From positions 3,616,001 to 3,680,000 of the forward strand of contig CM000153.2 of assembly GCA_000004695.1 (NCBI GenBank): 64,000 nucleotides of DNA, written 5' to 3'. The DNA is from Dictyostelium discoideum. Lineage: Eukaryota. The notes below the pieces were generated by a model. The model was not told the DNA's origin. It saw only the letters and a list, made by a program, of their open reading frames with translations, and searched no databases. Numbering within the stretch: position 1 is the first letter of the stretch; every line of letters starts with the position of its first letter. Shown piece by piece: positions 40,149-63,800 of this stretch. Position numbers and translations under genes: made by a program.

Positions 40149-40978
40149 ATGTCTGTTGATGCAAATAAAGTAAAATTCTTCTTTGGTAAAAACTGCACTG
40201 GTGAATCATTTGAATACAACAAAGGTGAAACTGTAAGATTCAACAATGGTGATAAATGGAATGATAAATTCATGTCATGTTTGGTTGGTTCAAATGTTAG
40301 ATGTAACATTTGGGAGCATAATGAAATTGGTAAGTATTTATAAATATTTTCTATTTTTATAAATTATAAATAATATTAATAGGTTTAATTTATTATTATT
40401 ATTTTAATTTTAAAATATAGATACTCCAACTCCAGGAAAATTCCAAGAATTGGCTCAAGGCAGTACAAACAATGATTTAACCTCAATAAATGGTCTTTCA
40501 AAGTTCCAAGTCTTACCAGGAGCTTTTCAATGGGCAGTTGATGTTAAAATTGTCAACAAAGTTAATTCAACTGCTGGTTCATATGAAATGACCATTACTC
40601 CATACCAAGTTGATAAGGTTGCTTGCAAAGATGGTGATGACTTTGTTCAATTGCCAATTCCAAAACTTACTCCACCAGATTCTGAAATTGTTAGCCATTT
40701 AACAGTTCGTCAAACACATACACCATATGACTATGTAAGTTTATTATTATTATTATTATGATTATTATTAAATATATAATTAATTTCTCTTTTATTAATT
40801 TTTAATTTTTATCTTTCTATAAATAAAAAAGGTTGTAAATGGAAGTGTTTACTTTAAATACTCCCCAACAACTGGCCAAGTTACAGTTATTAAAAAAGAT
40901 GAGACATTCCCAAAGAATATGACTGTTACACAAGATGATAATACATCTTTCATCTTTAACTTAAACTCTGAAAAATAA
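40149..40978 (+). CDS. cadA: Calcium-dependent cell adhesion molecule 1 (DdCAD-1/gp24). Exons 40149..40329, 40421..40734, 40832..40978; 213 aa.
   Basis: [60 protein letters not shown]|[14 protein letters not shown]... matches my recollection of DdCAD-1 (betagamma-crystallin-like N-domain followed by an Ig-like domain; 213 aa). GTAAGT donors at 40330 and 40735. Acceptors TATAG (40419/20) and AAAAAG (40830/31). Phases are consistent. Confidence 0.75.
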
Positions 40979-41052
40979 AACAATATGTTTTTTTTTCTCT
41001 TTAAGAAAACTTTAAATAATAAAATTATGAATTTCAGAAATTATTTAGGTCT

Positions 41053-41297
41053 TATTTTTATTTTATTTTTTTTTTTATTTGTTTCGATATTGGCTTAATT
41101 TGTAAATAACTTCATGTACACCAACGATATGACAAATTAAAATTGGGTCATTGCGATGGTGTTAAGAGATGTTTTATAGGCTCAGGGTTTCTAATTAGAA
41201 AATAAATCAGAAGTCAATAAAATTTCTTCAACTGGATCTTGGTGAAACGAAAGTGGTCTAATTTAATTATTTTTATTTATTTTTATGGAAGCGGGAA

Positions 41298-41331
<34 letters not shown>

Positions 41332-42425
41332 ACCTCAACCAATTAGGCAGTGTCTGAGTTTTATTTAATTTTATTTTGGTAGTATTTAAAAATTCTTAAT
41401 TATTTATGTAATTAGTATTGAATGAACAATAATGAACTAAATGTTCTGGTACATAAGTTCTCATTAATTGTGAATTCCAAGAGTGACTAAATTTTTCTAG
41501 CTTTTTCATTATTTTCCAAGTGTAGTCTAAATGAGGGTCTTTATTTCCAATCTTCTTAAATGATCTATTACTTTTAAAACGAAAGTATGGCGGGTCTTGA
41601 CGGCTTCTGTTGTGCCGTACCGGGGTGTCATGTCGGCCGTTTGTGCCGTCGGATGGTTTTGAAAACTACCTCCCCAGATTCGATTATAGTATTATAATCC
41701 CTCATTTCGGAGTTTTTAATTGCGGTACTTATTGGTCTGGTTATACATGTCTGAGGAGATTTTTGCTTTAACCCATCAATATGAGCAGTGTTTATTACTT
41801 CCTACTCTTGATCTAGGTCCTCTATGTTTATTACAAGCCAACAGGATATCGAACCGTTGTCCTAGGGTGTGCGTCGGTATTTACCTATCAGTGCCCTTCA
41901 AAGCGGGAAATTTTTTTTTTTTTTGAATTGGATAACGCAATTATTGGTTGCTTCTCCTTGAGATGCTAGATCTCATTTATTTTAGTATTTTTACAGGGTC
42001 TCTAAAAGAGGGGTTAGTTTACTTTTTTTTTTTTTTTTTTTTGTTTCTAATTTTGAATTGTATTATTACTTTTGATTAAAACATCTTTTTTGTCCAAACT
42101 TTTTTCAAAAACTTTTTTTATTTTATCGTCTGGCGACAGTTTGGCGGGTCTTGAAGTTGATGGTGTGACGAATACCCAACCTCCACTCATACTATCGGTG
42201 AAACCTTAAGCCACTTTCGTGACCGACACTCGCTCTCATCTCTCGCGCCACTCACTCGCCATTCGTCTTTATATATATTTTTACTTTTATCGACTTACTT
42301 TGTGTGAGCGCGATACCCCCTGTCTCCTTCCCGTTACTTGAAGTGTCTCGCCAGTGTACCACACGTTTACTATTGCAGTGACTGACTAACCAACGGCTTG
42401 CACTATCAGGGCCAATAAGCGGGAA
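41053..42425 (-). mobile_element. Tandem array of at least three short poly(A)-terminated retroelement units in minus orientation (U2 42425..41914, U1 41913..41293, U0 41292..~41053), head-to-head with the tRNA-Tyr gene. Probably TRE5-type (upstream tRNA-targeting) module-only derivatives.
   Basis: On the minus strand each unit begins ATTTCCCGCTT and ends in oligo(A), seen as 14-36-nt T-runs on plus at 41293-41328 and 41914-41927. U1 and U2 share an internal TCAAGACCCGCCA motif, have atypically GC-rich bodies, and carry no long ORF. The array's 5' end lies 33 bp from the tRNA start. The family name is recalled, not tested. Confidence 0.5.
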
Positions 42426-42458
42426 ATATGAAGCCAAAAAATAATTTAATTTCATCAA

Positions 42459-42541
42459 CCGGCTTTGGCGCAATGGTAGCGCGATTGACTGTAGTAATTA
42501 AAGTGATCAATCGGTTGCTAGTTCGAATCTGGCAAGCCGGA
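42459..42541 (+). tRNA. tRNA-Tyr (anticodon GUA) with an 11-nt intron (42495..42505) one base 3' of the anticodon
   Basis: Acceptor stem CCGGCTT/AAGCCGG. D-arm GCGC-AATGGTA-GCGC. Anticodon stem ATTGA/TCAAT with loop CTGTAG[intron]A. T-arm GCTAG-TTCGAAT-CTGGC. Discriminator A. T6 run immediately 3'. Eukaryotic tRNA-Tyr genes canonically carry an intron at 37/38. Confidence 0.85.
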
Positions 42542-42542
42542 C

Positions 42543-42548
42543 TTTTTT
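42543..42548 (+). terminator. RNA polymerase III terminator (T6) for tRNA-Tyr
   Basis: cTTTTTTaaaaaaa directly after discriminator base. Confidence 0.8.
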
Positions 42549-42565
42549 AAAAAAATTTAAAGCCA

Positions 42566-42578
42566 AGGGTTCGATTCC
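42566..42578 (+). promoter_or_regulatory. External B box (ex-B) downstream of the tRNA gene
   Basis: AGGGTTCGATTCC matches the B-box consensus GGTTCGANTCC, about 25 bp 3' of the tRNA. Many D. discoideum tRNA genes carry such an extra TFIIIC site, which is implicated in TRE3 targeting. Confidence 0.6.
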
Positions 42579-42808
42579 TTGTAAAAAATGGTAGAATGAA
42601 AAAAGTCGAAACACACATGATCATGACTGTCACTTGCTGCTAAACCGTACCGCTATCAAGAGGATACAAGATACACGTGAAAAGTAATTCATCCTTTTCT
42701 ATCCTTAATCTCGGTCAATTTTAACCAATCTTTCGAAAAAAATCACCAATCCACCACGATCTACAGATCTAACTTACCAAATCGCCGATTCAAAGGAATC
42801 CCATCGAG

Positions 42809-43882
42809 ATGAATTCCTACGCAGACGCGGCTAAAATGGCCAACCCCTCCACCCATATGGACGAGGCATCGGAGAACTTCATTAAGGAATTCTCCACAAA
42901 AACAGCAGAGATAAAGGAAACTTACCCCAAACTATCAATAGGCCTCAAAGACATCTCCAAATACTGCGAGACCATATTGAACATGACTGCGCTCTCAACC
43001 TACGAGAAGAACAACGGATTCTACCCAATTACACTCGAATTCCCCAAAATGGATCTCAAGGGGTTAGAAGAAATGAGAAAAACACTCTCAAACTACGATA
43101 TCCCAATCGACAAGATATACATAGGCAAAGGAACTAGAAAAATGATCCACCTGATGATTAAAAACGAACAATCTCTCCTAAATATCATTAGAGATAGAAG
43201 CAAATTGGGAACCTTCATCACCTCCAGTAGAGACTTCCACGTCCTCACAGGAAGAGTAAGAATTCCCAGAGAAAAGGCAGGAATAGTGGACGCCCTCATC
43301 AAAACTGCCTTTGCAGAAGAAATACCCTATGCAATATACAATACTATATACTCCACCGACCACCTCATAGTATTCGGTCTAATAGAATGCAAAATAGGCG
43401 ATCAAATGAAATCTGGCCAACACATTACAGAAATCGCAAACTTTACCATCAGAACGGCCACCAAAACCTACTCCTCACAAAAGAAAAACAAGAAAGTAGA
43501 GACAAACAACACGGAGGAACCATTAGAAGATGAGATGACAGATCCTCCTAACACTCAAAACAGGATAGCAATCAAATCCTCTCAACCAAAACCACAACAA
43601 CAAACAAACAACTCAGCAAACAATCAGTCTGATAAACAATCAACACAAGAGAAAAAAGCTCAAGCAAAAAAGTCATCTCAACCTCTTCCCCCCAAAAACC
43701 CAGCAGAATTTCAATCTGTCAAACCCACCACAACCACTACCACAACATCCAACGCCATCCAAAAAGACAATGCCAACAAAACAAGCACTAACATCCATTC
43801 ATCCTCGGAAAACAGAGAGAAGACACTAAACATCCCTCCAACTATACACCGAATTTCAAAAACAAAACGACTACAACAATAA
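42809..43882 (+). CDS. Retrotransposon ORF1 protein (357 aa)
   Basis: ATG-initiated ORF with elevated GC. Basic/Ser/Thr/Gln-rich C-terminus. Position and composition as expected for TRE ORF1. No cellular homolog recognised. Confidence 0.6.
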   Translation: MNSYADAAKMANPSTHMDEASENFIKEFSTKTAEIKETYPKLSIGLKDISKYCETILNMTALSTYEKNNGFYPITLEFPKMDLKGLEEMRKTLSNYDIPIDKIYIGKGTRKMIHLMIKNEQSLLNIIRDRSKLGTFITSSRDFHVLTGRVRIPREKAGIVDALIKTAFAEEIPYAIYNTIYSTDHLIVFGLIECKIGDQMKSGQHITEIANFTIRTATKTYSSQKKNKKVETNNTEEPLEDEMTDPPNTQNRIAIKSSQPKPQQQTNNSANNQSDKQSTQEKKAQAKKSSQPLPPKNPAEFQSVKPTTTTTTTSNAIQKDNANKTSTNIHSSSENREKTLNIPPTIHRISKTKRLQQ

Positions 43883-46800
43883 GGCTAACATCAAAAATCT
43901 AATCTCCCTACTAGAGACAGAATTTAAAGACCAAGCCTTCGCAACCCTTTCAGCAATAAATGAATCTAAAAAAAGAGAAGAACAACTTAAACAAGAATTG
44001 AACAACTATTGCGAAGAAACCTCACTCAAGTACATCTCCGCGAGAATCAAGAAAAGACACAATGATTTCACCATCAACGCAGTAAAAGATGCACAAGGTA
44101 GAACAATTAACAAACAGGAATTGATCGAAGAAGAATACGTAAAATATTACTCAAATCTTTATGACTACAAAGAAGATGACCCACTATCTCATTACGAAAT
44201 GTTGGAAAATTGGACAGTGACCAGGGACTCGACATGGGACAACCTTGAAAATGAATTCACCTCACAAGAAATCCTAGAAGTAATAAAACAACTGAACCCA
44301 CACAAATCTCCAGGTCCAGATGGAATTCCAAACTTATTCTACATAACACACAAAGAAAAACTAGCTCCAATACTGGCCTCAGCATTCAACGACACTCTAA
44401 GAAATCCTCATCTAATTAGCAAAAATTACAAAGAAGGCCTCATTATCACGATACCTAAAAAGGGAGACCCCGAACTAATCAAAAACAGAAGACCAATTAC
44501 ACTGGCTAACTGTATATATAAAATCCACTCAAAGCTAATAAACAATAGAATAATCCCAATACTAACGAAAGTGATCAACAACAATCAAAAAGGTTTCGTA
44601 CCAGGCAGATTCATTATAGATAATATCATATCAATGAACGAATTAATCAACTATTGTAATGATAAAAGAATTAACGGAATAATTACACTATATATTTCGA
44701 AAAAGCTTNNNNNNNNNNNNNNNNNNNNNNNNNNNNNNNNNNNNNNNNNNNNNNNNNNNNNNNNNNNNNNNNNNNNNNNNNNNNNNNNNNNNNNNNNNNN
44801 NNNNNNNNCTCATCTAATTAGCAAAAATACAAAGAAGGCCTCATTATCACGATACCTAAAAAGGGAGACCCCGAACTAATCAAAAACAGAAGACCAATTA
44901 CACTGGCTAACTGTATATATAAAATCCACTCAAAGCTAATAAACAATAGAATAATCCCAATACTAACGAAAGTGATCAACAACAATCAAAAAGGTTTCGT
45001 ACCAGGCAGATTCATTATAGATAATATCATATCAATGAACGAATTAATCAACTATTGTAATGATAAAAGAATTAACGGAATAATTACACTATATGATTTC
45101 GAAAAAGCTTTTGACTCGATCTCACACGGTTCAATACTTAGATCACTACAACACATCAACATTCCAACCAATATAATCAACCTGATAATGAATCTACTCA
45201 CCAAATCTGAAGCAAGAATTGAAATTAATGGTAGAACTACTATACCCTTTGAGATCAAAAGAGGAGTTAAACAAGGAGATCCACTATCACCCACACTGTT
45301 CGTCCTTGTAATAGAGGCTTTAGCTAGAAAAATTTTACAAGATGATCGAATTACTGGCCTTCCTCTAAACAACAGCAACCACAGAGAGAAATTCCAAAGC
45401 TTTGCAGACGACTCGGCTTCAATGGTCCCAGACTCTCAACAACTTGAATTAGTACTACAACACTTCAATTCATTTTGCAAAGCCACTTCCTCAAAACTAA
45501 ACATCGACAAATCTTCATCAATTCTTATAGGCAACCCAGACAATACCAACCAAAGAATTCCAATATCTACAAATCCAGAAAGATACTTGGGATACTTCTT
45601 CACAGGTAAAGGGATAACAAGAAAAATGCCAGAAATATTAAACACAATAAGATCATCCTTAGTACTATGGAAAACCACTGACTCAACAATAAAAACCAAA
45701 ACCAACATCCTCAAAGCATTCGCACTCTCTAAATTAACCTACTATTCATATGTAGAGAACTTTAAGGAAGAGGAATTAAACCAAATCAATAAATTAGTCG
45801 AATGGTTTTTATCGGCACCAAACAACAAAAATGCTAGTGGATTTCAAGTTATTAATTTAATGAGAACCAAAAGAGCAAGATACCCACTAAAAGTAGGGGG
45901 CTGGAACATTTGGAATATAGAATTGAGACAACTGGCGCAGAAACTTTGGATCATAAACCAGTTCATACTAGCACTAGAAACCAAACAAACAAACTCATCT
46001 CATCACAAAAGCTGGGAATATCAGATCCAAAAAAACAAATTCACATCCAGATACCTAAAAGAAAACTTAGACGAATGGAACAAAATAAGAATAAAAAAAG
46101 CAATCTTCAACAATAATCTCACATCCATAAAAAACGAAAATGGACAACCACTTTCACTGGCAGAATGGTATACCACAATTCAAGACCAAAATCCAACCAT
46201 CCCTAAAACTGAATTCCAATCATCTCTAAACTTAAGAGGCTACAGCTATAATCAACTCTTCAACAACATACTGAAGATAAAAGACCCTAAAACAAGAGAC
46301 ACAATGTTTAGATTCCATGCCAGATGTCTTCCAATAAACTACCTTCACAACAAACAATGCCCACTCTGCAAAGAAGATATGAGCAAAGACCCATACGGTC
46401 ACCTGTTCTTCTCATGCAAGAAAACAAAACAATTCATAAAAATAAATAAACTCAAAAATTTCATCTATATTACCACAGGCAAAGGTAAAAACTGGCACCA
46501 TACAAGAATTAGGCAAAATAACAATTTCATTAATAGAATAACTCCAAAATTATCACCGACATCCAAAAAAGATCAAGAAGTGAATGCAGATTACGCCAAC
46601 CACAGATCCCACAAAGAATACTTTGAATGGAACTATAAAGCAATAGACTATGATCTAACCAGATCATTCGCATATAGAAACCTAATGGCCCTTATCCTCC
46701 ACAACATTTGGATTTGGATTTGCAATCAAATATACAGTGAAGATCCTTTAACAGATGAATCACTATCATACAGCTCCCTTCTAAAGAAATGGCACAAATT

Positions 46801-46987
46801 GGCCACTCTAGAATACATCAAAAAAGCAAAAGATCTGAAAAACTTATCAGCAAAAGACCATAATAACTTCAAAGATCCTAAGATCCTTCTCACTTCAACG
46901 ATCAAGCTAAGAAAAACAACAGCTAATTACTATTGTATTCCAGAATCATCTCTCCCAAATATTATATCTTTTGATCAATTCATATGA
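43830..46987 (+). pseudogene. Retrotransposon ORF2 (reverse transcriptase plus C-terminal Cys-His finger), 5'-deleted for the APE domain and interrupted by an assembly gap and duplication
   Basis: RT motifs as listed for the mobile element. The frame is open from 43830 but has no canonical ATG before the RT. It overlaps ORF1 in the +1 frame. The N-run at 44709-44818 with about 300-bp near-identical flanks breaks the frame. Confidence 0.6.
44709..44818. other. Assembly gap (110 N) with near-identical roughly 300-bp sequence on both sides (44401-44708 and 44811-45100)
   Basis: The run of n is flanked by duplicated ORF2 sequence differing by single-base indels (aaaattacaaag vs aaaatacaaag; tatatttcg vs tatgatttcg). 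This is a scaffolding/overlap artefact rather than biology. Confidence 0.9.
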
Positions 46988-47112
46988 TTAAAATAACCCT
47001 TCAGCTTAAATGATAAGCCTTTAAATAAATATTAAATAAAACTCGTATTAACACAGATGGACATATATCAATCTTGTTAATCCAATATTAAAAAAAAAAA
47101 AAAAAAAAAAAA

Positions 47113-47545
47113 CTTGCTGCTCAGGTTTAAAGAGTGATTTTTTCTGGGTAGTCAATCTTGTTAATATTAAAAAAAAAAAAAAAAAAAAAAAAATTCTGGG
47201 TATCAGGTAATGCAAATCCATGTCCATCAGGATGGTCAGTGGAATACCCAGTCAGAACTGCATCAATCACAAATAATCGATTAACTTGGTACTGGTGTGC
47301 AGATATATTCGATGTTGGTGGCATGTTGAGCAAAATACATTCTCATCAGTTCTAAATTGTGGTTATCAAGCCTATATTATTGGTACAATCACACCTTCAC
47401 AACAACCAATAGATATTTGGTTAATTCATTTTGTTCAAATGATGGTTCTATGGTTAGATCAAATACTAAACCAATAACATCTGATGCTACTAAAAATTTA
47501 TGTGCAAAAGGGAAAATAACAATCACCAATTCAAATATTGATACC
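47113..47545 (+). pseudogene. Truncated, frameshifted, inverted duplicate of the N-terminal domain exon of the EGF/TIG gene (intact copy at about 55680-56100, minus strand)
   Basis: Three overlapping frames read SGNANPCPSGWSVEYPVRTASITNNRLTWYWCADIFDVGG / VLNCGYQAYIIGTITPSQQ / RYLVNSFCSNDGSMVRSNTKPITSDATKNLCAKGK. The intact gene reads SGSANPCPSGWSVEYPVRTAPITNNQLTWYWCVDILDVGG...VLNCGGYQAYTIGTIT...NRYLVVSFCSNQGDMVESNSKPITSDATKNLCTKGK. The copy starts right at the TRE3 poly(A), lacks the signal peptide and EGF repeats, and ends in AT-rich DNA. Confidence 0.75.
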
Positions 47546-47996: not shown

Positions 47997-49463
47997 ATGG
48001 AACTCATACTCTATAATAATAATAATAATAATAAAAATAAAAAAAAGAATTATAATGACAAATTATTTTTTAAAATTTGGAAAAATAAAATTATAAGGAA
48101 TGAAATAATTCATCATTTAAAAATTTATAATATCCATTCAATTAAATTAAATCCTTTTAATGGTAAAAAAGAATTTGAAGAATATAAATATAACAGTTAT
48201 CTTTTGTATTTAGATTTAATAGTATTTGAAAATGAAAATTTAGAAATTGGAACGATACCAAAGGATTCATGTATTAAAGAATTAACAATTAGACAATTTT
48301 TTAATTGTAAAAATGAATTAATAATAAAAGAGAATAGTTTACCCAAGTCGATAAAATCACTTGATATTAGTCGTTGTAATTTTAATCAAAACAATTTAAA
48401 TAATAAAATATTTGGTCAATCAATAACTCATCTTTATTTGGGTACTGGATTTAATAAAAGTCTTGGTGGCAATTGGTTACCTAGTAATTTACAACATTTA
48501 GAAATTCATAGCATGATGTTTAATCAAGATATTAAAATTGGACAATTACCAGAGTCACTTACAATTTTAAGGTTAAATCATTATTATGATGGTTTGATTG
48601 AAACTGGTTCAATTCCTCCCAAAGTTATAAATCTTCATTATAAATTTGATTCAAATTATAATAAGAGTTCATTTGATCAACATTGTTTTATTCCAAAGTA
48701 TATGACATCATTAGAATTTGATTATGAATTTAATCAACCAATCATTGTTGGTACCATTCCAAAGAATATAACATCAATTAAATTTGGTAATCAATTTAAT
48801 AGTGAAATTAAAGAGAATTCATTACCAAAATTAGTTTCTTCAATTACATTTGGTCATGGGTATAGTCAACCAATTAATAATATAAATATTTTACCACCAA
48901 ACCTAACAAAATTAGAATTTGGATATCATTTTGATCAACCAATTGATTCAAATAATTTTCCCTCCTCTATTACCTCTTTAAAATTTGGTGAAAATTTCAA
49001 TAGAGATCTAAATGAATCATTTTTTAAAAAACTTTATCATTTAAAGGTTTTAGAGGTTGGTTTGTATTTTAAAAAAATAATATCACCAAATTCATTACCT
49101 AATTCATTAAAACAATTAAGTTTGGGTGATAGATATAATCATAAATTAACAATTAATACCCTACCATCATCTTTAGAAATATTAAAATTGGGTAGATATT
49201 ATAATCATTCTATTGAAGCTGGTGTACTACCTCCAAATTTAAAATCATTATATCTTGATGGTAATAGTCATATTTTAGATCTAACTCCATCTGGTTGTTT
49301 ACCAAATAATCTACAATATATTTATTTTAAACATTCACCTCCAATTCTATGTCCAACTACAACTCCATCATCTTTAAAATCAATTATATTAACTTCAACT
49401 TTAGAATTAAATAAATTTAAAGAATTTATTGATAATCCCTTCTTTTTTAAATATTTAAAATAA
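47997..49463 (+). CDS. FNIP-repeat protein (488 aa)
   Basis: Many tandem roughly 22-aa repeats of the form LP.SL..L.FG..FNQPI (for example ILPPNLTKLEFGYHFDQPI, FPSSITSLKFGENFNRDL), the Dictyostelium-specific FNIP repeat. Poly-N N-terminus. Single ORF. Confidence 0.75.
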   Translation: MELILYNNNNNNKNKKKNYNDKLFFKIWKNKIIRNEIIHHLKIYNIHSIKLNPFNGKKEFEEYKYNSYLLYLDLIVFENENLEIGTIPKDSCIKELTIRQFFNCKNELIIKENSLPKSIKSLDISRCNFNQNNLNNKIFGQSITHLYLGTGFNKSLGGNWLPSNLQHLEIHSMMFNQDIKIGQLPESLTILRLNHYYDGLIETGSIPPKVINLHYKFDSNYNKSSFDQHCFIPKYMTSLEFDYEFNQPIIVGTIPKNITSIKFGNQFNSEIKENSLPKLVSSITFGHGYSQPINNINILPPNLTKLEFGYHFDQPIDSNNFPSSITSLKFGENFNRDLNESFFKKLYHLKVLEVGLYFKKIISPNSLPNSLKQLSLGDRYNHKLTINTLPSSLEILKLGRYYNHSIEAGVLPPNLKSLYLDGNSHILDLTPSGCLPNNLQYIYFKHSPPILCPTTTPSSLKSIILTSTLELNKFKEFIDNPFFFKYLK

Positions 49464-50929: not shown

Positions 50930-53900
50930 TTATTTATTTATTTTTTTATTTAGCATAGTATTTAATTGTTTCTTTTTCTTTCTATCTCTAAATACAAAAG
51001 CACCTATACCAGCAATTGCAACAGCAGCAGCACCACCAATTGATACACCAGTTGCTAATTTCCAATCGACAGTTTTATCATCTTCACATATACCAGTTGG
51101 TTTATTATTGACATTTAAGAGCATACCAAAATCTGGATCAATTAATGATTCATTTTTAAAGTATGGTACGGAAATACCAATCACAGAAGTGGTTCTAGAT
51201 GGTGATTCTAAAGATTCAATATGTGCAATAACTGGATGACCATCAACTGATGCATAGGAAATGAATCTTGTGATCATACCAGTTTCAGGATTTTCAGTGG
51301 TTGTCCAAAGATGTTGATTATAAGTTGAAACGGTTGGTCCATCAATTGAACATTGATTGGCATCATCATTCAATAAAAGAGTTTCAGTTTGAACAACGAT
51401 TCTAAGGGAATTTAATTTTCTAAGGAATGGCCATTTTTGAGTTTTGAATGAAAGTTTAATTGATTCTGATGGAATTACAAAAGAGTTTGAAGCAAAGGTA
51501 ATATTACGTGATTGTTTAAAGTATTCAAATGTTGCTTCCAAATAAGATTGATTTTCAAGAGTAATATTGAAAGTCCATTGATTAGTTGATGAATGACGAC
51601 CCCATTTAGATTGTAATAAATCGATTGAAACTTCAACTTGATCATTAATATCTAATTCTTCAATTCTAATGATGGTGATTTTATAACCAAATCCATTTTC
51701 ACTATTATTGCTACCAACATTAATTGATGGAACATCGACTGTTGGTGGGATTGGATCAATTTCTGCACGAGTTTCATTACATGAAAGACCAGTGAAACCA
51801 ATATCACAAACACAACCACTTGGAGTACATTGACCTTTTCCACTACAATCCAATGGGCATCGAGTATCTTCCAATGTTGAGTAAGTGAAATAGTAATCAT
51901 TGGCAACTGGTAAATTATCAACAACCAAATCAATTAATTGAGAGTAAATAACAGATGTTGACTCTAATTCACAAGTTAACTCTGTATGAGATTTAATTTC
52001 AACATTACTACAATGTTTATTACCAACACTAAGAGTAGCAAAAGATTTAGTTACCAAACCAAAGTTTTCACCAAAAACTGTTAAAATACCACCACTTGAA
52101 TAGACGTTTGATGTTGATTTAATAATTGGATTTGCATAGGTTATATAGGTTGTATCTGTGTTTGTTACAGATTCATTATATAATCTAATATAATTGTAAC
52201 TACCTGAACCTTGACCAATTGTACAAGTAATCTGTTCATTTGATATTATTTGGGATACTGGGCAATTAATTGAGTTGATAATTATTTCAACTAAACCTAA
52301 AGTTGGGAGATTTCTACCAGTTATTGTAATTAAATCATTACCAATAGTTGGTGGATTATGTGAATAACTAACAATATATGGTGCACCAATAAAATTGAAA
52401 GGATCTGATAAAATGTTATTTGCTTCAACTATAACATTACCAATAACTTCTTTACCTTCTCTACTTGAACATTCAGTATATGTATCATTACCAGTAACAT
52501 AATCACAAATCATTTCACCAATTGTAACCTTTGTATCAAACTCTACGAAATTGATACCTTGAACAACAAATATATTGGATCTGAATGGTTTTTGATAAAA
52601 ATTTGTAATGATAGGTTTTGGTTCACATGTAAATGGAGATGAATGAGAATAATCTGATGGATTACATTGACAAACATAACTACCATTTCTATTTTCACAA
52701 ATTGTATTTGAACTACATTCATTCAATTCATTTGATAAACATTCATTAATATCTTCACAATAGGTACTATTATTTGAAAATCCATTCGATGGACAAATAC
52801 ATGAATAGGAACCATCGGTATTTTGACAAGAAGTAAATTCACCAACACATTTATTATCACCATTTTCACATTCATCAATATCATCACATGATAATTTATT
52901 TTCATTTAATGTAAAACCTGAATTACATGAACATGAGAAACTACCAACTGAATTTGTACAAACTTGAATACAACCACCATTATCAGTAGAACATTCATCA
53001 ATATCATCACATTTTTTATTGTCTTGATTTAATAAATAACCTGAATTACAAGAACATTGGAAACTACCTTGTAAGTTTTTACAAACGTGTTGACAATCAC
53101 CATTATTAGTTAAACATTCATCAATATCATCACAATTTTTGTTGTTTTGATTTAAAGTGAAACCTAAATTACATGAACATTGGTAACTACCTATTTGGTT
53201 TATACAAATTTGTCCACAATCACCGTTATTAGTTGAACATTCATCAATGTCATCACATGTTTTGTTATTTTTATTTAATGCAAAACCTGAGTTACAATAA
53301 CATCCGAAACTACCTGGAATATTTGCACATTTTTGATCACAACCACCATTATTTGAAATACATTCATCAATATCATCACAAGACTTTTTATTATCAACAT
53401 TTAAAGTATAACCTGAATCACATGAACATGAGAAACTACCAACTGAATTTGTACAAATTTGACTACAACCACCATTATCAGTAGAACATTCATCAATATC
53501 GATACAACCTGAACCTGTAAATGAGTAACCATTTGGACATGAACATTGATAACTTCCTGGAGAGTTTGCACAATTTGCAGTTCCACAAATATTTTGATCA
53601 CATTCATTTATATCATCACATGATAATTTATTTGAATTTAATGTAAAACCTGAATTACATGAACATGAGAAACTACCAACTGAATTTGTACAAATTTGAC
53701 TGCAACCACCATTATCAGCAGAACATTCATCAATATCAATACAACTTGAACCTGTAAATGAGTAACCACTTGGACATGAACATTGGTAACTTCCTGGTGA
53801 ATTTGTACAATTTGCAGTGCCACAAATCTTTTGATCGCATTCATCTATATCAATACAACCTGAACCAGTAAATGAATAACCACTTGGACATGAACATTGA

Positions 53901-55469
53901 TAACTTCCTGGTATATTAGTGCAATTTGCAGTTCCACAAATCTTTTGATCGCATTCATTTATATCATCACATGATAATTTATTTGAATTTAATATAAAAC
54001 CTGAATTACATGAACATGAGAAACTACCAACTGAATTTGTACAAACTTGTGTACAACCACCATTATTAGTTAAACATTCATTTTTATCTGTACAAGTCTT
54101 TTTATCAGTACTCAATAAATAACCTGAATTACATGAACATGAGAAACTACCTGCTGAATTTGTACAAACTTGACTACAGCCGCCATTATTAGTTGAACAT
54201 TCATTTATATCATTACAATTCTTTTTATCAGTACTTAATATATAACCAGAATTACATGAACATGAGAAACCACCTGCTGAATTTGTACAAACTTGTGCAC
54301 AACCCCCATTATTAGTTGAACATTCATCAATATCTACACAACTTGAACCTGTAAATGAGTAACCACTTGGACATGAACATTGATAACTTCCCACTGTATT
54401 TGTACAGTTTGCAGTACCACATATTTTTTGATCGCATTCATTTATATCTGCACAAGTCTTTTGGTCAGTACCTAATAAATAACCTTGATTACATGAACAT
54501 GAGAAACTACCTGCTGAATTTGTACAAACTTGATTACAACCACCATTATTAGTTGAACATTCATTTATATCTGTACAGGTCTTTTTATCAGTACCTAATG
54601 AATAACCTGAATTACATGAACATGAGAAACTACCAACTGAATTTGTACAAATTTGATTACAACCACCATTATTAGTTGAACATTCATTTATATCTGCACA
54701 AGTCTTTTGGTCAGTTCCTAATGAATAACCTGAATTACATGAACATGAGAAACTACCTGCTGAATTTGTACAAACTTGATTACAACCACCATTATTAGTT
54801 GAACATTCATTTATATCTGCACAAGTCTTTTTATCAGTACCTAATGAATAACCTGAATTACATGAACATGCGAAACTACCTGCTGAATTTGTACAAACTT
54901 GATTACAACCACCATTATTAGTTGAACATTCATTTATATCTGTACAGGTCTTTTTATCAGTACCTAATGAATAACCTGCATTACATGAACATGCGAAACT
55001 ACCTGCTGAATTTGTACAAACTTGATTACAACCACCATTATTAGTTGAACATTCATTTATATCTGTACAAGATTTTTTATCACTATTCAATGTGTAACCT
55101 GCTCTACAAGAACATGTGAAACTACCTGCTGTATTTGCACAATTATGAGCACAACCACCATTATTAGTTGAACATTCATTTATATCTACACAAGTCTTTT
55201 TATCAGTACCTAATGTGTAACCTGCTCTACATGAACATGCGAAACTACCTGCTGAATTTGTACAAACTTGATTACAACCACCATTATTAGTTGAACATTC
55301 ATTTATATCTGTACAAGATTTTTTATCACTATTCAATGTGTAACCTGCTCTACAAGAACATGTGAAACTACCTGCTGTATTTGCACAATTATGAGCACAA
55401 CCACCATTTGAAGTTGAACATTCATTTATATCTAAATTAAAGTTTATTTTTTGAAATTGAAAAAAAAAA

Positions 55470-55505
<36 letters not shown>

Positions 55506-56240
55506 GTTAGGAAAAGTGAAAAAAAAGTAGAGGGCAGGAAAAGTTGAAAAAAAAGTTGAGGGAAGGAAGAGTTTAAAAAAAAAAAGTTGAGAGAAGGAAA
55601 AGTTGAAAAATAGAAAAAAAAAAGAATTGAAACAAAATAAAAAATAAAAGAAAATATAATACAAACCTGTGCATGAAGGAGCTGTTCCTGTATAACCGCT
55701 TGGACAAACTGCTGAATAAATTTCTAGGTACCTAACATCTGTGATTGTTCCTTTTCCTTTTGTACATAAATTTTTAGTAGCATCAGATGTTATTGGTTTA
55801 GAATTTGATTCAACCATATCACCTTGATTTGAACAAAATGAAACAACCAAATATCTATTGGTTGTTGAGAAGGTGATTGTACCAATTGTATAGGCTTGAT
55901 AACCACCACAATTTAGCACTGATGAGAAAAGAACTTCTGTAGTGAAGCCTCCAACATCTAAAATGTCTACACACCAATACCAAGTTAATTGATTATTTGT
56001 AATTGGTGCAGTTCTGACTGGGTATTCCACTGACCATCCGGATGGACATGGATTTGCAGAACCTGATAACCAGTAAAAATCACTCTTTGAACCTGATCTA
56101 CAAGTGGCTGTAGTAATTTGAGTTATAACTTGTTTAACACATGCTCCATTAGCTAATGTTGTTCCTGCTGGACATGTTTGACAAAATACTCTCCCCAAAA
56201 AAATTAATAAAAATATAAAATTTAAAAATAATGACTTCAT
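50930..56240 (-). CDS. Large type-I membrane protein: signal peptide plus a roughly 170-aa N-terminal domain, more than 25 tandem calcium-binding EGF repeats, IPT/TIG domains, one TM helix and a short basic tail. Exons 56240..55667 and 55431..50930; about 1,690 aa. ComC/Tgr-like adhesion/signalling architecture.
   Basis: Exon 1: MKSLFLNFIFLLIFLGRVFCQTCPAG...CPSGYTGTAPSCTG, GTTTGT donor, phase 1. Exon 2 starts (D)INECSTSNGGC after a TTAATTTAG acceptor. It has DINEC/DIDEC...NGGC...C.N..GS(F/Y).C.C..G(F/Y) repeats throughout, then PIITNFYQKP...(TIG), CPLDCSGKGQCTPSGCVCDIGFTGLSCN, a TM (GVSIGGAAAVAIAGIGAFVF) and RDRKKKKQ. Confidence 0.75.
51700..55431 (-). repeat. Tandem array of about 129-bp units, each coding one cbEGF module, with long stretches of near-identical nucleotides between units
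   Basis: Strings such as acctgaattacatgaacatgagaaactaccaactgaatttgtacaaa recur at about 52915, 53640, 54000, 54130, 54610 and 54730. Confidence 0.8.
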
Positions 56241-56733
56241 TATTATTTTTATATATACACGAAATAGTATGAAATAAAAAAAGGGAAGCTTTAAAAAAAA
56301 AAATATGTGCACGAAAATAATCAAACAATAAATGTGATTAAACAAAAAAATTAGAAAAAATTCGAAAACACAAAAAACTATCTAGATTCCAACCCAAAAA
56401 AAAAGAAGGGCAATGGAAATTATCTAGATTAATATAAAAAAAAGTAAAAAATCATAATCCAACCTCAAAAAAAAAATATCTGATTTTGATTTTTTTTTTT
56501 TATTCCAAACCAACTCCCAAATTTTTTTTATTTTTTTTATTTTTTTTTTTTTTTTAATTTTCCTAAAACACCATAAAATTCTTTTTTTGGTTGCCGGTAC
56601 ATAGATTAAAATATGTTTTTGATTTTTTTTTTTTTTTTAGATGTGCAATTGTGTTTAATTTCGAGCTCAAATTTTTACCAGTGATCAAAATTAATTAATT
56701 TCATAAATTTATTTCTTTATTTTATTTCTTTTT

Positions 56734-57826: not shown

Positions 57827-58058
57827 AAAAACCAAAATAAATCATTTCAAAGCTTTTTTTTGGTTTTTGTAATTATAAAATTATATTTTTTATTATCTTT
57901 TTTTTTTAATATTTATTCTTTCTTTCTTTTGTTAATTTGTTTTTTTTTTTTTATTTAAAAAAAGGTTAACATCATCTTTATGAATAAAAAAAAAAAACAT
58001 TAAAAATGAAATTTATAGGAATGTAATTTGTGATGAGTTTATTTATTTTTTTTTTCTC

Positions 58059-60096
58059 TTAATTAGATTTTGGAGGTCTTCCTCTACCTCTTTTAGATGG
58101 CGTTAAATTAACATTATTATTAATATTGTTATTATTATTATTGTTTTTAAAGCTTGGTCTACCTCTTCCTTTTGGTTTTGATTTTGGTTTTTCTAATAGA
58201 TTTAAAAATTCTTCATCATCAATATCACCACCATTATTTGATTCAGACTCACTTCCATCCTCACCACTATATCCATCCTCACCACCGCTTTCATTATCGC
58301 TATTATTATTACTATTTACATCTGATTGATCTTCGTCTTCTTCTTCTTCACTTTGATCAATCTTTTTTCTTCCTCTCTTTCTTGGTGTTGTTACTTTTGG
58401 TGTTGTTTGTTTTGATCTTGGTTTTGGTTTTGGTTTTTCTTGATAATCTTCTTCGTCCTCTTCTTGATTATTATCATCTTCATCTTCATCTTCAAATATT
58501 AACCTATTCGTTCTTTGTCTCTTTGTTATTGGTTCAGTTTGATTTTTAATTGATTTTCTCTTTTTATTGGTTGAATCTCCATCATTATCGTCATCGTCAT
58601 CATCATCATTATAATCATTATCAGTACCATTTTGGTTTTTATCGTCATTATCTGAATCATCTAAAATCTTTCCGCCATTTTGATGAGATGAATTATTATC
58701 ATCAATGAAACCATCATCATCACTTTCTTCATTTGACTGATTTGAACGAGATCTGGTGAGTCTACCTGTAATTAATCTCTTTGACGGTGTAGATGAAGTT
58801 GTAGTGGTAGTTGTAGTGGTGGTGGTGGTAGCGTTAGCCTTCTTTCTTCCTCTTTTCGATGGAGTTCTATTTACATTGATGCCACCTTCATCCTCTGAAG
58901 GACTTAATAATGATCTTGTGATATTTTTACCAGTTTTTGAATTATCATGTTCAGAATCTGATATACTAATATCACCTTCTAAACCATCACCATTACGACT
59001 TTTATTATTACCATGATTATTATTTGCAAGATTATCATCATCATCATCATCATCATTTGTTACACCACTAACCATACTATCATCCTCATCATCCAATTGA
59101 CTATCATCTTTATCGGCAGCCATCGATTTCAAAGTGAAAGAATCGAAACTACCACCACTTTGTAATAATATATCAGATGGAGTATAATTTGCAGCTTCTT
59201 TTAATATATCAGAGATCCTATGAAAAACCAATTTTGAGTTCTTTGCAACCATTGTATTTGGTTTATTATAAACGTAAGCATCAATCATAATTAACTTTGC
59301 ATCGAAATAGATTGCATCCAAACTTCTATAATAACTTGACTCTAATCTTTTTATAATTGTACTAATATCCATTGGATGTGGAACAAATCTAATATACAAT
59401 GGATATAATTTCAAATCTACAGGTTCACTATAAATATCGGTGATTTCGTCATTCTCTAAAAATTCTTTCATCTCTTTCTTTAAATTTTCAATCTTTTCAT
59501 CTTCAATACTTTCAACATATTGGATTTTAATTCTTAATATATTATCTTTAAAATTATTATTATTATTATTATTATTGTTGTTGTTGTTGTTGTTATTATT
59601 ATTATTAGATGTTTCTGTTGTGGTAGTGGTAGTGGTAGTAGTATTTGAAGTAGTTGCAGTTGGGGGTGAATTAAAATTGTTATTGGTATTATAATTCATA
59701 ATATTTGAAGAGCTATTATTAAAATTACTATAGTTTGTATTGAAATTATTGGTATAATTGTAATTTGTAGGTTGTAACTGTGAATTATAATAGATATTGT
59801 TTAATTGAGGTTGTTGTTGATTTTGCATGGTAGAATTTTGAGGATAGGTTTGCATATACATATTTGAATTGTTTGGGTCAAGATATGAATAATTTGAAGT
59901 ATTGTTGTTCATCATCATACCATTATAATTTCCTTGATACATATTATAATTCATAAAATTATTATTATTATTATTAAAATTTGTATAATCTAAAATTCCA
60001 CTCATTGATAAATTATTATTACTATTATAGTTGAAATTATTATTATTATTATTATTATTATTACCGCTATAATCAACTAAGCCACCATTTAAACTA

Positions 60097-60182
<86 letters not shown>

Positions 60183-60808
60183 TACATTGGTATTGTTAAT
60201 TGATAATTGTTGGTTATTTTGTATTGGTTGTTGTTGTGGTTGTTGTTGTGGTTGTTGTTGTTGTTGTTGTTGATTATTTTCAATAACTTTTTCATTTTCA
60301 TTTTCATCTTTGATTTCTTTAATTTTTTGAGGATTTTGATCATCGTCAAATTTTTCATCAATTTCCCAATAATTAACTCTGTCTTCTTCTTCAGTATCAT
60401 CCCAAAGTACTTTAATATTCTCCCAAGGACTATTTGGAAAGAGAGGATCAGAATCAGAGATTTCAATGATTGTACCATTATACCAACCACTTGCAGGATA
60501 AAACATTCTAAAACGTTTATTTGGAACGGTCCAATCTGTAAGCATAGATTTTCTAACCTTTGATGCCAATACTAAATAATCTGGAATATCAGAGACATGA
60601 TAAATAACCGTATAAAAGTTTGATTCATCATTTTGATTTTGTGGTGGTACTTGTTGATCAAACACAGGTAATAATGTAATTACAACTTTATGAGTACCAT
60701 CTGGTGATATAAAATAATTTAAATTCTTAATAATACATTCTTGATAACTCTTTTTAATAATTTTTTGACTATCATCATCATCACTATTAATTTGTTGATC
60801 ATCAACAC

Positions 60809-60881
<73 letters not shown>

Positions 60882-63800
60882 ATTATTATTATTTAAAATA
60901 TAATTAACTATTGATTTATTATCTAAATTTGATTCAATTCCATTTGGTGGGAATTTCTCTAAATATTTGGTATGACCTTGATAGAAATAGAAAATGAAAT
61001 CACCAACTTGTGGTGAATAGAATGTTTCGGATGTTGTGGAAGTAATAGATAACCATTTTGGACAAACTGGTAAAATTTCTTTCTTTTTTCTAATATCATT
61101 TAATTTCTTTAATGCACTTGCTGTAAGATGATTTTGGTTGTGAGAGGTGGAGGAGGAGGAGGATGTTGATGATTTCTTTCTACCTCTTTTTTGAACTTTC
61201 TTATTTTTAACATTTTTTTTACCTTTTTTATTTCTTTTACTTTTATCACCACGCTTATTTTTGTTTGATTTTGATCCAGAATAATCTGAATCACTACCAT
61301 TAGCGCTACTATCATTTTCGCTACTATTATCACTACTATTGTCGCTATCATCATCACCACCACCACCACCACCATCACTACCATTATAACTTTCGCTACC
61401 ACTAAATTCATCATTATCATATCTATTTCTATGTTCATAATCATTATCATCACTATCTAAAATATTATCATTTAAATATTGATCATCATCATCCATTTCA
61501 ATTTCACCATCGTTTATTAAATTGTAACGTTTCTTTTGTTTATTGGATAAACGTTTATTGGAGACAGCTTTTCTATTATTATTATTACTATTATTATCAT
61601 CATCCTCTGGTAAATCAAAAGTATTCATAATTTCATTAAATTTAGAAGGACTTGTATTCCTTCTAGTGAATTTTTTAGATTGCTTTAATAGACGTTTCTT
61701 TCTTTTATCGGCTTTAATTTTAGATTTCTTTCTTGTTGACATTTTCTTACCATCACTATCATAGTCTTCGTCATCGTCATCATCATCATCATCATCCTGT
61801 TGTTGTTGTTGATGCTGTTGTTGTTGTTCATCTTCTGATGAATTTTCTGAAGCATCAGATGGATTAAAATCTTCATCAGATGGATCACTTGGAAAAATGA
61901 TTTCATCATCAATGATTTCCTCTTCAATTTGATCCCATGGTCTACGTGGTTTTTTTGGTATTTTTTTAGGTTGAGGTTTTGGTTCAGATGCAACGAAAAT
62001 AACAATTGGATGAGATGGGATATTGGAAGGATTACCTTGGTTAAAAGTATAAACTTCACGTCTTTCAAATTCCTTTTGAATTTTTAAATCTCTCTTATAG
62101 TTTGAAGTATTTTTGTAAGGTTCTAAATGATAGATAGCATCTTGATCAGTGAAATTATAATGATCTGGATAAGGTAAACCTTGATAATTGACCAACATTG
62201 CTCTTGGCATGAGATGGGGTGGTGTTTGAGTGAGTTCATCCAAAACATTTCCATTGGCATCACGAATTAATGGATGATAATCTGTTAAAAAGTATTGTTC
62301 GTTTGGTACTAATTTCTTTAGATTATTAATATCGGAACCTAAACCCAACTCAAACATAAACCATTTTCCAGTCGAATTTGTCACAATGAATTTTTGACCA
62401 TCGGGTGAGAAACAACCATCTAAAATCTGACATTGAAAACCTGGTTCTTGTAAAACGAATTTCTTTATAATCTCACCAGTTTCAATTGACCATAGAATCA
62501 CTTGAGAGTCATAACCTGAACTCATTATCAATCTTGAATCGAACGGATGACAACTAGTTACATAGACCTCTGATGTATGTTCAGCCATTTCCAAATGAAA
62601 ACTACCATCCAATGAATTCCAAACCCTAATCATATTGTAATCGGTGGTGATGATAAAACGATCGTCATGTGACCAAATCACATTTTTAAAGGTTGCTTTT
62701 GATCTTGCCACTTTTTTAGGATGACTATTTGCTTGATTTGGACGTTGAGTATTTTTAATATTAAAAATTACATGATCCCATTTTGGTCCACCACTATGTC
62801 TCCAAATGATAACGGTACCATCATAACTACCCGACACAATTGCATCACTACCATGACTATATTGTAATGCTAAAATTGTAGTTGGATGACCCTCTAATGT
62901 ATTTACCAATTTTGGTGGATTAAATAATGTTGACCAAATCTTTAATGAACTATCAACACTAGCTACAATTAATGTACCACCTTTATTCATTGTTGTACCT
63001 GTAATTTCATTAGTTTTACCTGGTGTTGTTGTTGTTGTTGTTGTTGCTATTGTTGCTGTTGCTGTTGTTGCTGTTGTTGTTATTGCCGTTGTTATCGTAG
63101 TTGCAGTCAATATTGGTACTTCAGCATCTGTAATCATCTCTGTATCTATTTGTTCATCATTAATATTACCTGTATTGATTGTACTTTGACTACCATTATC
63201 ATTTAATGATAAAGAAATTACATGATTTGATTTATCTAAATTCCAAAGTTTACATTGACCAAATGAATCACTCGATACTAATAATCTAGTGGTTGGATTT
63301 GATAAAAAAGAGATTGAAGTGATCGTATTATTAACAGATGGATCATGACCAGTCAATGATGCTATTGAATCATATTGATTTGAATTTAAATTCCAAATTC
63401 TAATGACATTATCATTTGAAGCAGTTGCAAGTAAACTATTATCAAAACTTGTACACATATCTGTAATATCACCTAAATGACCTCTTAAAGTTGCAATTAA
63501 TCTACCACTATATGTTGACCAAACTTTAACTAAATGGTCATCTGATCCTGTAAAATATAATCTACCAGATTTGTCAAATTGTAAACAATATGTTGGTGCT
63601 TTATGACCATATACTATTAAACTCTAAATAATAAAAATTATTATTATTAATATAAAAATAAAAATAAATAAAAATTCAAAAAATAATAAATACATACATT
63701 TTTAAAATTTGAATAAAATGAAATTGGTAATTGACTTGTTGATTTCAAAGATTTACTTATAACTTCTTGACCAGAAAGTTTAACTGGTATTGGTATACTA

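Follow-up and report, generated by a model that had tools for sequence, protein, structure and literature searches.

TRE5-type and TRE3-A retroelement insertions on both sides of a tRNA gene in Dictyostelium discoideum

We analyzed a 64,000-nucleotide stretch of Dictyostelium discoideum DNA (hereafter the window; GenBank assembly GCA_000004695.1, contig CM000153.2, positions 3,616,001 to 3,680,000, forward strand), which is AT-rich (~20-25% GC) except for a GC-richer block at 41-47 kb. This block holds a tRNA gene, which we read as tRNA-Tyr(GUA), and the traces of four integration events: two TRE5-type insertions upstream of the gene and two TRE3-A insertions downstream, all four bearing a poly(A) tail and a target-site duplication. 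The locus is very probably a hot spot of integration directed by RNA polymerase III (Pol III) genes, with TRE5-type elements inserted head-to-head with the tRNA gene at about -42 and TRE3-type elements inserted in the same orientation at +100.

The tRNA gene and the features around it

The features of the locus are listed below in window coordinates; ORF stands for open reading frame.

41289-41299: target-site duplication, copy 1, 11-bp AAGCGGGAAAT, distal flank of the presumably older upstream insertion
41301-41900, minus strand: presumably older upstream insertion, comprising poly(A)28 (41301-41328), a TRE5-B-like 3' end (41331-41568) and X3 (41569-41900)
41901-41911: target-site duplication, copy 2, AAGCGGGAAAT, common to both upstream insertions
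41912-42416, minus strand: presumably younger upstream insertion, comprising poly(A)13, the C-module (41925-42022), A20 (42023-42042), the last 90 nt of the B-module (42043-42133) and the 5' module X1 (42134-42416)
42417-42427: target-site duplication, copy 3, AAGCGGGAAAT, 31 bp upstream of the tRNA gene
42459-42541, plus strand: tRNA-Tyr(GUA) gene
42491-42493 and 42495-42505, plus strand: anticodon and 11-nt intron TAATTAAAGTG
42514-42522, plus strand: internal B box GTTCGAATC
42543-42548, plus strand: T6 run read from the sequence, putative Pol III terminator
42568-42578, plus strand: external B box (ex-B) GGTTCGATTCC, 26 bp past the tRNA gene
42633-42641 (left) and 47113-47121 (right): 9-bp target-site duplication CTTGCTGCT of the large TRE3-A insertion
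42642-47112, plus strand: TRE3-A non-long-terminal-repeat element with a complete 5' end and poly(A)23
42809-43882, plus strand: ORF1 of this copy; the reverse transcriptase and zinc-finger part of ORF2 extends to 46987
44709-44808: assembly gap of 100 N, flanked by 44407-44708 and 44809-45110, which are one 303-bp sequence entered twice
47142-47150 (left) and 47194-47202 (right): 9-bp target-site duplication TTCTGGGTA of the mini insertion
47151-47193, plus strand: mini insertion, an extremely 5'-truncated TRE3-A of 43 bp (17-18 nt of the 3' end plus poly(A)25)
47203-47526, plus strand: leftover target DNA, which together with 42631-42641 and 47113-47150 forms an inverted partial exon copy

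The tRNA gene scored 57.8 bits in Rfam (gathering cut-off of 29) and was the sole Rfam tRNA in the 64 kb. Excision of TAATTAAAGTG at the canonical position 37/38 leaves the anticodon loop CUGUAGA and thus the anticodon GUA of tyrosine, as an earlier reading of the sequence alone (the sequence-only reading) had proposed. Nuclear tRNA introns of eukaryotes lie between nucleotides 37 and 38, and introns are characteristic of eukaryotic tRNA-Tyr genes. ARAGORN detected the same gene but in bacterial mode printed it as Thr(tgt) and, with introns allowed, as Asn(gtt) bearing an intron at 34/35; the 11 extra bases can be removed in either register. That the gene encodes tRNA-Asn(GUU) or tRNA-Thr, as these labels say, is nevertheless very improbable. 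The 37/38 placement yields GUA together with U33 and a purine at position 37, and the Rfam alignment keeps G34 and U35 fixed with the insertion placed after them. Furthermore, the acceptor stem, as read from the sequence, begins with C1-G72 and carries discriminator A, which matches the eukaryotic tyrosine identity set of C1-G72 plus A73. The cloverleaf, the GUA anticodon, the 37/38 intron and C1-G72 are all in agreement with the predicted tRNA-Tyr(GUA) gene. Bacterial-mode tRNA finders mislabel this intron-bearing tRNA-Tyr, and automated anticodon calls for eukaryotic intron-containing tRNAs need checking.

The B-box core GGTTCGANNCC was matched once in the 64 kb, at the ex-B box, as compared with 0.01 matches expected. 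A similar ex-B box, GGTTCGAAACC, lies 25 bp past the tRNA-Thr gene in a comparison locus (L002), and about 66% of the tRNA genes of D. discoideum are followed by an ex-B box (PMC3159450). A paralogous tRNA-Tyr(GUA) gene in another locus (L007) is 95.6% identical including the flanks and has the same intron. Two tandem full-length TRE3-A copies (L007 2613-13300) start 67 bp downstream of that paralogue. The presence of a TRE3-A pair there as well suggests that the Tyr gene family has been targeted repeatedly.

Downstream TRE3-A insertions and the empty-site comparison

The large downstream element starts 100 bp past the tRNA gene and 63 bp past the ex-B box, in the orientation of the tRNA gene, so that the earlier placement of a TRE3-type L1-like element 60-270 bp downstream was borne out. 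Published TRE3 integrations lie 40-150 bp downstream from a tRNA gene in the same orientation (PMC5911963, PMC5006619), and the copy in the window falls within this distance from either the tRNA gene or the ex-B box. An RVT_1 domain was found, a CX2C...H...C region is present, and the reverse-transcriptase ORF of the block is 100% identical to the D. discoideum AX4 protein DDB_G0285835. The copy shows 98-99% identity to the full-length copy in L002, which begins 73 bp behind the tRNA-Thr gene.

Compared to the L002 copy, 1175 bp (L002 5033-6207) are missing, with the junction in the window at 43839/43840 (CATCCCTCC|AACTATACACC). The missing segment corresponds to residues 307-635 of P0004 and includes the sole, weak Exo_endo_phos match (377-569, E = 0.0055). 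Since the Exo_endo_phos segment lies within the deletion, the copy has lost the endonuclease region; of the three expected parts, apurinic/apyrimidinic endonuclease, reverse transcriptase and zinc finger, the first is deleted. This loss sets the copy apart from TRE3-A (formerly Tdd-3) as otherwise known, whereas its position and orientation, poly(A) tail and 9-bp duplication are those of the family. The copy is a defective TRE3-A member rather than another family, and it cannot move autonomously.

The subfamily was determined from the intact sister copies, on which the length and the frame structure were tested. The intact copy in L007 has 5226 nt without poly(A), with ORF2 overlapping ORF1 by 82 nt in the -1 frame; the two ORFs, the -1-frame ORF2 and the consensus length of TRE3-A were thus all found. 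The reported TRE3-A consensus has 5229 bp and a -1 frameshift, and those of TRE3-B and TRE3-C measure 5279 bp and 4734 bp, respectively (PMC5006619, PMC5911963). The protein cluster of the reverse-transcriptase ORF comprised 79 members. Length, frame structure and copy number together point to TRE3-A.

An assembly gap of 100 N interrupts the large copy. The two 303-bp sequences that flank it are 99.3% identical, and their differences are single-base insertions or deletions typical of read ends. In an independent long assembly of D. discoideum (GCA_054883475.1, L001) and in L002, the sequence is continuous across the gap position, and L001 gives a 303-bp overlap. The gap with its 303-bp duplication is therefore an assembly artefact, which, if unrecognised, would mimic a tandem duplication with frameshifts within the reverse transcriptase. 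The gap-corrected length of the downstream TRE3-A copy is 4069 bp.

The mini insertion lies 30 bases beyond the right copy of CTTGCTGCT and matches the TRE3-A 3' end at 47068-47109 with 86%. Both downstream insertions could be compared with an internal empty site. The downstream target DNA, which lies directly behind the tRNA gene, is a 365-bp inverted and 86% identical partial copy of the exon at 56106-55741, which belongs to a large minus-strand gene at 50930-56345 (ORFs 50930-55336 and 55437-56345); its product, of 1691 aa in L001, contained no Pfam domain. When both insertions and one copy of each duplication were removed, 42631...47526 aligned to 56106-55741 without interruption. In addition, each of the duplicated 9-mers (CTTGCTGCT and TTCTGGGTA) is single-copy in the paralogue, and the mini insertion is absent there. 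The continuous alignment independently confirms both downstream insertions and their boundaries. On the reconstructed sequence, the mini insertion lies ~128 bp from the end of the tRNA gene, a position that falls within the TRE3 range only if it was occupied before the large insertion. The mini insertion is thus probably the older of the two.

These comparisons also corrected the extent of the retroelement block, which had been taken to fill the whole interval from 41053 to 47545. Its right end (47194-47526) is not retroelement, being the inverted 86%-identical exon copy of 56073-55741; in all, the leftmost 240 bp (41053-41288) and the rightmost 350 bp are not element. For 40979-41288, including the T11 run at 41066-41076, we found no copy of a duplication and no similarity to 136 kb of Dictyostelium loci rich in transposable elements, and hence no sign in the sequence of an element there.

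Upstream insertions and the identity of their tails

Upstream of the tRNA gene, the order on the tRNA strand is AAGCGGGAAAT (41289-41299), T28, 570 nt, AAGCGGGAAAT (41901-41911), T13, 98 nt, T20, 374 nt, AAGCGGGAAAT (42417-42427), 31 nt and the tRNA gene. The 11-mer AAGCGGGAAAT thus occurs in three exact copies, as compared with 0.00 expected by chance. Both units lie on the minus strand, head-to-head with the tRNA gene, and their poly(A) tails appear as distal T-runs on the tRNA strand. The three copies of AAGCGGGAAAT bracketing two poly(T)-led units are the trace of two successive target-primed insertions at one site. At a tRNA-Ser(GCU) gene in another comparison locus (L005 5653-8830), successive TRE5 insertions reiterate a different duplication, AGCTGTCATCGATGAC.

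The 5' end of the proximal element at 42416 leaves a gap of 42 bp to the tRNA start at 42459, and not the 33 bp given in the sequence-only reading; the proximal duplication ends at 42427. Published TRE5 integrations lie 40-54 bp upstream of the tRNA gene in opposite orientation (PMC5911963, PMC5006619), and the spacing, the orientation, the oligo(A) tails (A28 and A13) and the target-site duplication seen here all agree with this class. At the comparison loci, TRE5 elements stand head-to-head with the tRNA gene at 44 bp (L002), 47 bp (L005) and 45 bp (L009), with target-site duplications of 10-16 bp. An array of poly(A)-ended elements had been noticed upstream before. Such elements do exist, but as two minus-strand units rather than four, and four integrations are documented at the locus rather than at least five, because an internal A-run and the T11 run had been counted as tails. 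The duplications looked for at each junction were found, with AAGCGGGAAAT three times upstream and the CTTGCTGCT and TTCTGGGTA pairs downstream.

The proximal unit (41912-42133) showed 78-96% identity to element 3' ends in L002, L004, L005 and L006. The L006 element is complete with two ORFs, starting ~50 bp upstream of a tRNA-Asp gene; the product of its ORF2 (P0128) falls into a cluster with AX4 proteins. The ORF1 start of this element is also matched by the 90 nt at 42043-42133, and the B-module is duplicated within TRE5-A, as published (PMC3159450). The B and C parts of the proximal unit match the B-C ends and the 5' B-modules of TRE5-A copies bearing ORF1 and ORF2. The order expected of TRE5-A (formerly DRE), a B-module followed by a 134-137-bp C-module with a hairpin, was found in this unit; 41925-42022 (98 nt) is C-module. 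The nucleotides mutated in the study of the essential C-module hairpin, C38, A35, C26 and T15 counted from the 3' end (PMC3159450), are present and sit in two predicted stems (fold z = -2.56). An A-run between the B- and C-modules likewise occurs in L002, L005 and L006, and this shared arrangement indicates that T20 (42023-42042) is an internal A-run and not a separate tail.

The proximal unit thus resembles TRE5-A in its B-module end, internal A-run and C-module, as well as in its head-to-head position, its 11-13-bp duplication and its oligo(A) tail. However, it has the structure X1-B(90 nt)-C, as opposed to the AB-ORF1/ORF2-BC structure of TRE5-A or the AB-ORF1-BC derivative, and neither was found here: within 41912-42416, the ORFs do not exceed 73 aa and protein matches are absent. 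The 200-bp A-module promoter was not found at its 5' end either, as X1 is dissimilar to the sequence before the B-module in L004, L005 and L006. We infer that the ~200-bp unit before the B-module in L004 and L005 is the A-module.

The distal unit (41331-41568) encodes ...HLRRLEIK...DYTWKIMKKLEKFSHSWNSQLMRTYVPEHLVHYCSFNTNYINN followed by a stop, that is, the last ~60 codons of ORF2, and then the 3' untranslated region (UTR). In blastx, this peptide matched the extreme C-terminus of TRE5-clade ORF2 (P0028, P0127 and P0128), and an exhaustive phmmer search matched it to P0136-P0138, with a best E of 3.8e-19. Full-length P0138 is 44% identical to TRE5-A ORF2, as compared with 32-36% to TRE3 ORF2s. 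P0015 was dropped as a TRE5-A ORF2 reference because its identity to TRE5-A ORF2 was only 28%. The DNA of the distal tail is 83% identical to L009 5987-6146, which belongs to a D. discoideum copy sited 45 bp upstream from a tRNA-Lys gene, and the two can be aligned at their 3' termini. A C-module was not seen in the distal unit, whose 3' end aligns with the ends in L009 and L008 and not with the C-module. TRE5-B, the closest relative of TRE5-A, has no C-module (PMC3159450, PMC4559204). The TRE5-clade ORF2 end (KFSHSWNSQ...CSFNTN) and the missing C-module led us to call the distal tail TRE5-B-like, an assignment by elimination; it differs from TRE5-B in that only ~240 nt of tail are present, joined to X3.

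Chimeras between TRE5 subfamilies were also seen elsewhere. In the predicted protein P0145, from a D. discoideum strain with the locus-tag prefix ACTFIR, the TRE5-A B-module/ORF1 start MKIKNNTTNSKQYKC... is fused to a TRE5-B-like ORF2 C-terminus. In L005, a mosaic unit contains two A-module-like repeats, a 5' B-module part, 92 nt similar to X3 and a TRE5-C-like ORF2 end, and its C-like module is about 77% identical to the TRE5-A C-module of the window. To judge from such sequences, inter-subfamily TRE5 chimeras seem common.

Integration at the tRNA gene and the origin of X1 and X3

The arrangement of the insertions agrees with a mechanism described in the TRE5-A literature. The internal A and B boxes of the tRNA gene and the ex-B box 26 bp downstream are presumably bound by TFIIIC and TFIIIB. 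TRE5-type elements would recognise the Pol III complex from upstream and start target-primed reverse transcription ~42-48 bp before the gene, with the 5' end facing the tRNA. The first such insertion would have duplicated the 11-13-bp site AAGCGGGAAAT(AT), and the second would have cut the tRNA-proximal copy of AAGCGGGAAAT, displacing the first element outward. TRE3-A elements would recognise the B box or ex-B box from downstream, their insertions taking the orientation of the tRNA. Of the two TRE3-A insertions, the near tail-only copy probably came first (~128 bp in the pre-insertion sequence), followed by the copy with the complete 5' end at 100 bp. The endonuclease-less copy may have been mobilised in trans, or its deletion may have occurred after insertion. 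In published work, the TRE5 ORF1 protein contacts TFIIIB and targeting needs an intact B box and TFIIIC, whereas the position of TRE3 is set relative to the B or ex-B box (PMC5911963, PMC5006619, PMC3159450). The protein contacts proposed here are taken over from the TRE5-A literature, and these contacts and the order of events are what we infer.

The spacing and orientation on both sides fit the published rules, as the sequence-only reading had expected of TRE5 and TRE3 elements. For yeast Ty3 and Ty1, the Pol III complex is likewise a safe landing pad, and repeated hits on one tRNA gene are possible. They differ in being long terminal repeat (LTR) elements that use an integrase and insert upstream only, with no downstream class (PMC5911963).

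Some points weigh against this reading of the locus. With 42 bp, the upstream spacing falls close to the lower limit of the published 40-54 bp range. The empty-site proxy is a paralogue in the same window and not an empty allele of another strain. The subfamily names rest on length, structure and elimination. Lastly, X1 and X3 had no match by blastn or tblastx in the TRE5-A, TRE5-B-like (L008), TRE5-C-like and TRE3 copies retrieved, which indicates that the upstream elements are neither canonical full copies of TRE5 nor copies with a simple 5' truncation. The expectation that the flanks would match TRE sequences therefore held for the 3' parts of the upstream units, which match TRE5, and failed for their 5' halves. 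The sole exception to the negative result for X3 was a 92-nt stretch in L005 with 90% identity, flanked there by a TRE5-A B-module and a TRE5-C-like tail.

X1 (42134-42416, 283 nt) and X3 (41569-41900, 332 nt) are GC-rich and contain no long ORF. They have ~16/21 nt in common at the 5' end and, at the 3' end, the 21-mer TCAAGACCCGCCAWACTKTCG, with the remainder unrelated, and TCAAGACCCGCCAWACTKTCG sits exactly at the junctions with two different TRE5 tails. A scan of metagenomes for TCAAGACCCGCCAWACTKTCG gave no match, and neither X1 nor X3 resembles the ~200-bp unit between the target-site duplication and the B-module in L004 and L005. X3 was also tried as decayed ORF2 upstream of the zinc finger, first suggested by its spacing to an 'RD' motif. 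This was rejected: the score was 19, as compared with a shuffle mean of 20 +/- 2.7 (TRE5-B-like ORF2), and the L005 TRE5-C-like copy is unrelated at that position.

In our view, X1 and X3 most likely derive from an unsampled TRE5 5' module with an internal deletion, template switching being the main alternative. According to the former, to which we give somewhat better than even chances, X1 and X3 are 5' untranslated modules of unsampled TRE5 subfamilies, and the units are internally deleted, non-autonomous and mobilised in trans, like TRE5-A.2. The 5' terminus common to both units abuts the target-site duplication, as is the case for full-length 5' ends, TRE 5' regions diverge strongly between subfamilies, and non-autonomous deletion derivatives of TRE5-A that are mobilised in trans are known (PMC3159450). 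However, the TRE5-B-like 5'UTR in L008 is AT-rich and tandemly repeated, unlike X1 and X3. The junction of X1 with a TRE5-A tail makes at least one unit chimeric anyway, and two independent deletions meeting the same 21-mer require an extra assumption. The 5'UTR in question (L008 4345-4930, D. cf. discoideum) consists of three tandem ~190-bp repeats, each with a (GT)n run, and these resemble the repeated A-module-like units of the TRE5-A copies in L004 and L005.

In the alternative, the units are chimeric retrocopies: the reverse transcriptase would have switched from the tail of a TRE5-A or TRE5-B RNA to another RNA (X1 or X3) and copied it to its 5' end, so that X1 and X3 would not be TRE sequence. 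Human U6/L1 and other L1 template-switch chimeras offer a precedent, in which a complete-looking 5' RNA module is likewise fused to a LINE (long interspersed nuclear element) 3' fragment, with one target-site duplication and a poly(A) tail bordering the entire unit; what they have in common with the units here is confined to structure. The common 21-mer at junctions with two different tails, the similar 5' ends of otherwise unrelated blocks, the 92-nt X3 piece at a B-module/TRE5-C-like junction in L005 and further TRE5 chimeras such as P0145 speak for such switching. No source gene was found, however. Rfam searches at E<=5 returned only the tRNA and a chance microRNA match and no family for X1 or X3, and neither block folds better than its shuffles (z = -0.05 for X1 and -0.89 for X3). 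An unsampled TRE5 5'UTR accounts for the same facts more simply, and we regard template switching as unlikely, at about one chance in five. A special form of it, in which X1 and X3 would be copies of an undescribed RNA family with conserved ends that was repeatedly captured through template switching by the TRE5 reverse transcriptase, fits the third X3 fragment at the L005 TRE5 junction and is more doubtful still.

A further explanation, that the GC-rich upstream blocks are solo LTRs (H3R, its former name) of the Ty3/gypsy LTR element DGLT-A and not TRE5, draws on the 265-bp LTR of DGLT-A and its likewise upstream targeting of D. discoideum tRNA genes (PMC5006619), and on a TG...CA pair 266 bp apart in X1 (42142-42407), and was rejected on structure as highly unlikely: a pair with this spacing has a chance of ~0.2 in a 283-nt block by our own estimate, the corresponding span in X3 is 305 bp, no 4-6-bp duplication surrounds either block, the X1-X3 similarity continues beyond both TG and CA, each block is part of a unit that has an 11-bp duplication and a poly(A) tail at its borders, the latter being absent from DGLT-A, and the position is -42, not -13 to -33.

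The left neighbour of the locus (40149-40978) has three exons and a 213-aa product with the Crystall_3 and Membrane_bind Pfam domains, which are those of the cell-adhesion protein from cadA; the placement of cadA next to the tRNA gene was thereby confirmed. On the right lies an FNIP-repeat gene (47997-49463). The independent assembly L001 has matching gene order and insertions at 99.8-99.97% identity, and a lookup with the FNIP-repeat protein and the adjacent 344-aa protein returned only one assembly besides that of the window, with identical structure. In the rest of the 64 kb, no further copies of the upstream units or of TRE3 were found. Raised GC (0.30-0.33) was also seen at 51000-55000 and 58000-63000, the first of which coincides with the large minus-strand gene.

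At least one TRE is found at 61% of D. discoideum tRNA genes, and both TRE5 and TRE3 at 13% (PMC5006619). By this measure, the tRNA-Tyr locus next to cadA is an ordinary one; its behaviour is already known biology, and nothing new is learned from it. It serves well as a textbook example: TRE5-type elements cut one 11-bp target on two occasions, an internal empty-site paralogue allows both TRE3-A insertions to be checked, and an ex-B box is present. X1 and X3 would matter only if they were not derived from TREs; in that case, Dictyostelium would for the first time have yielded evidence of LINE-mediated chimeric retrocopies, or of a passenger resembling a short interspersed nuclear element that rides TRE5 to tRNA genes.

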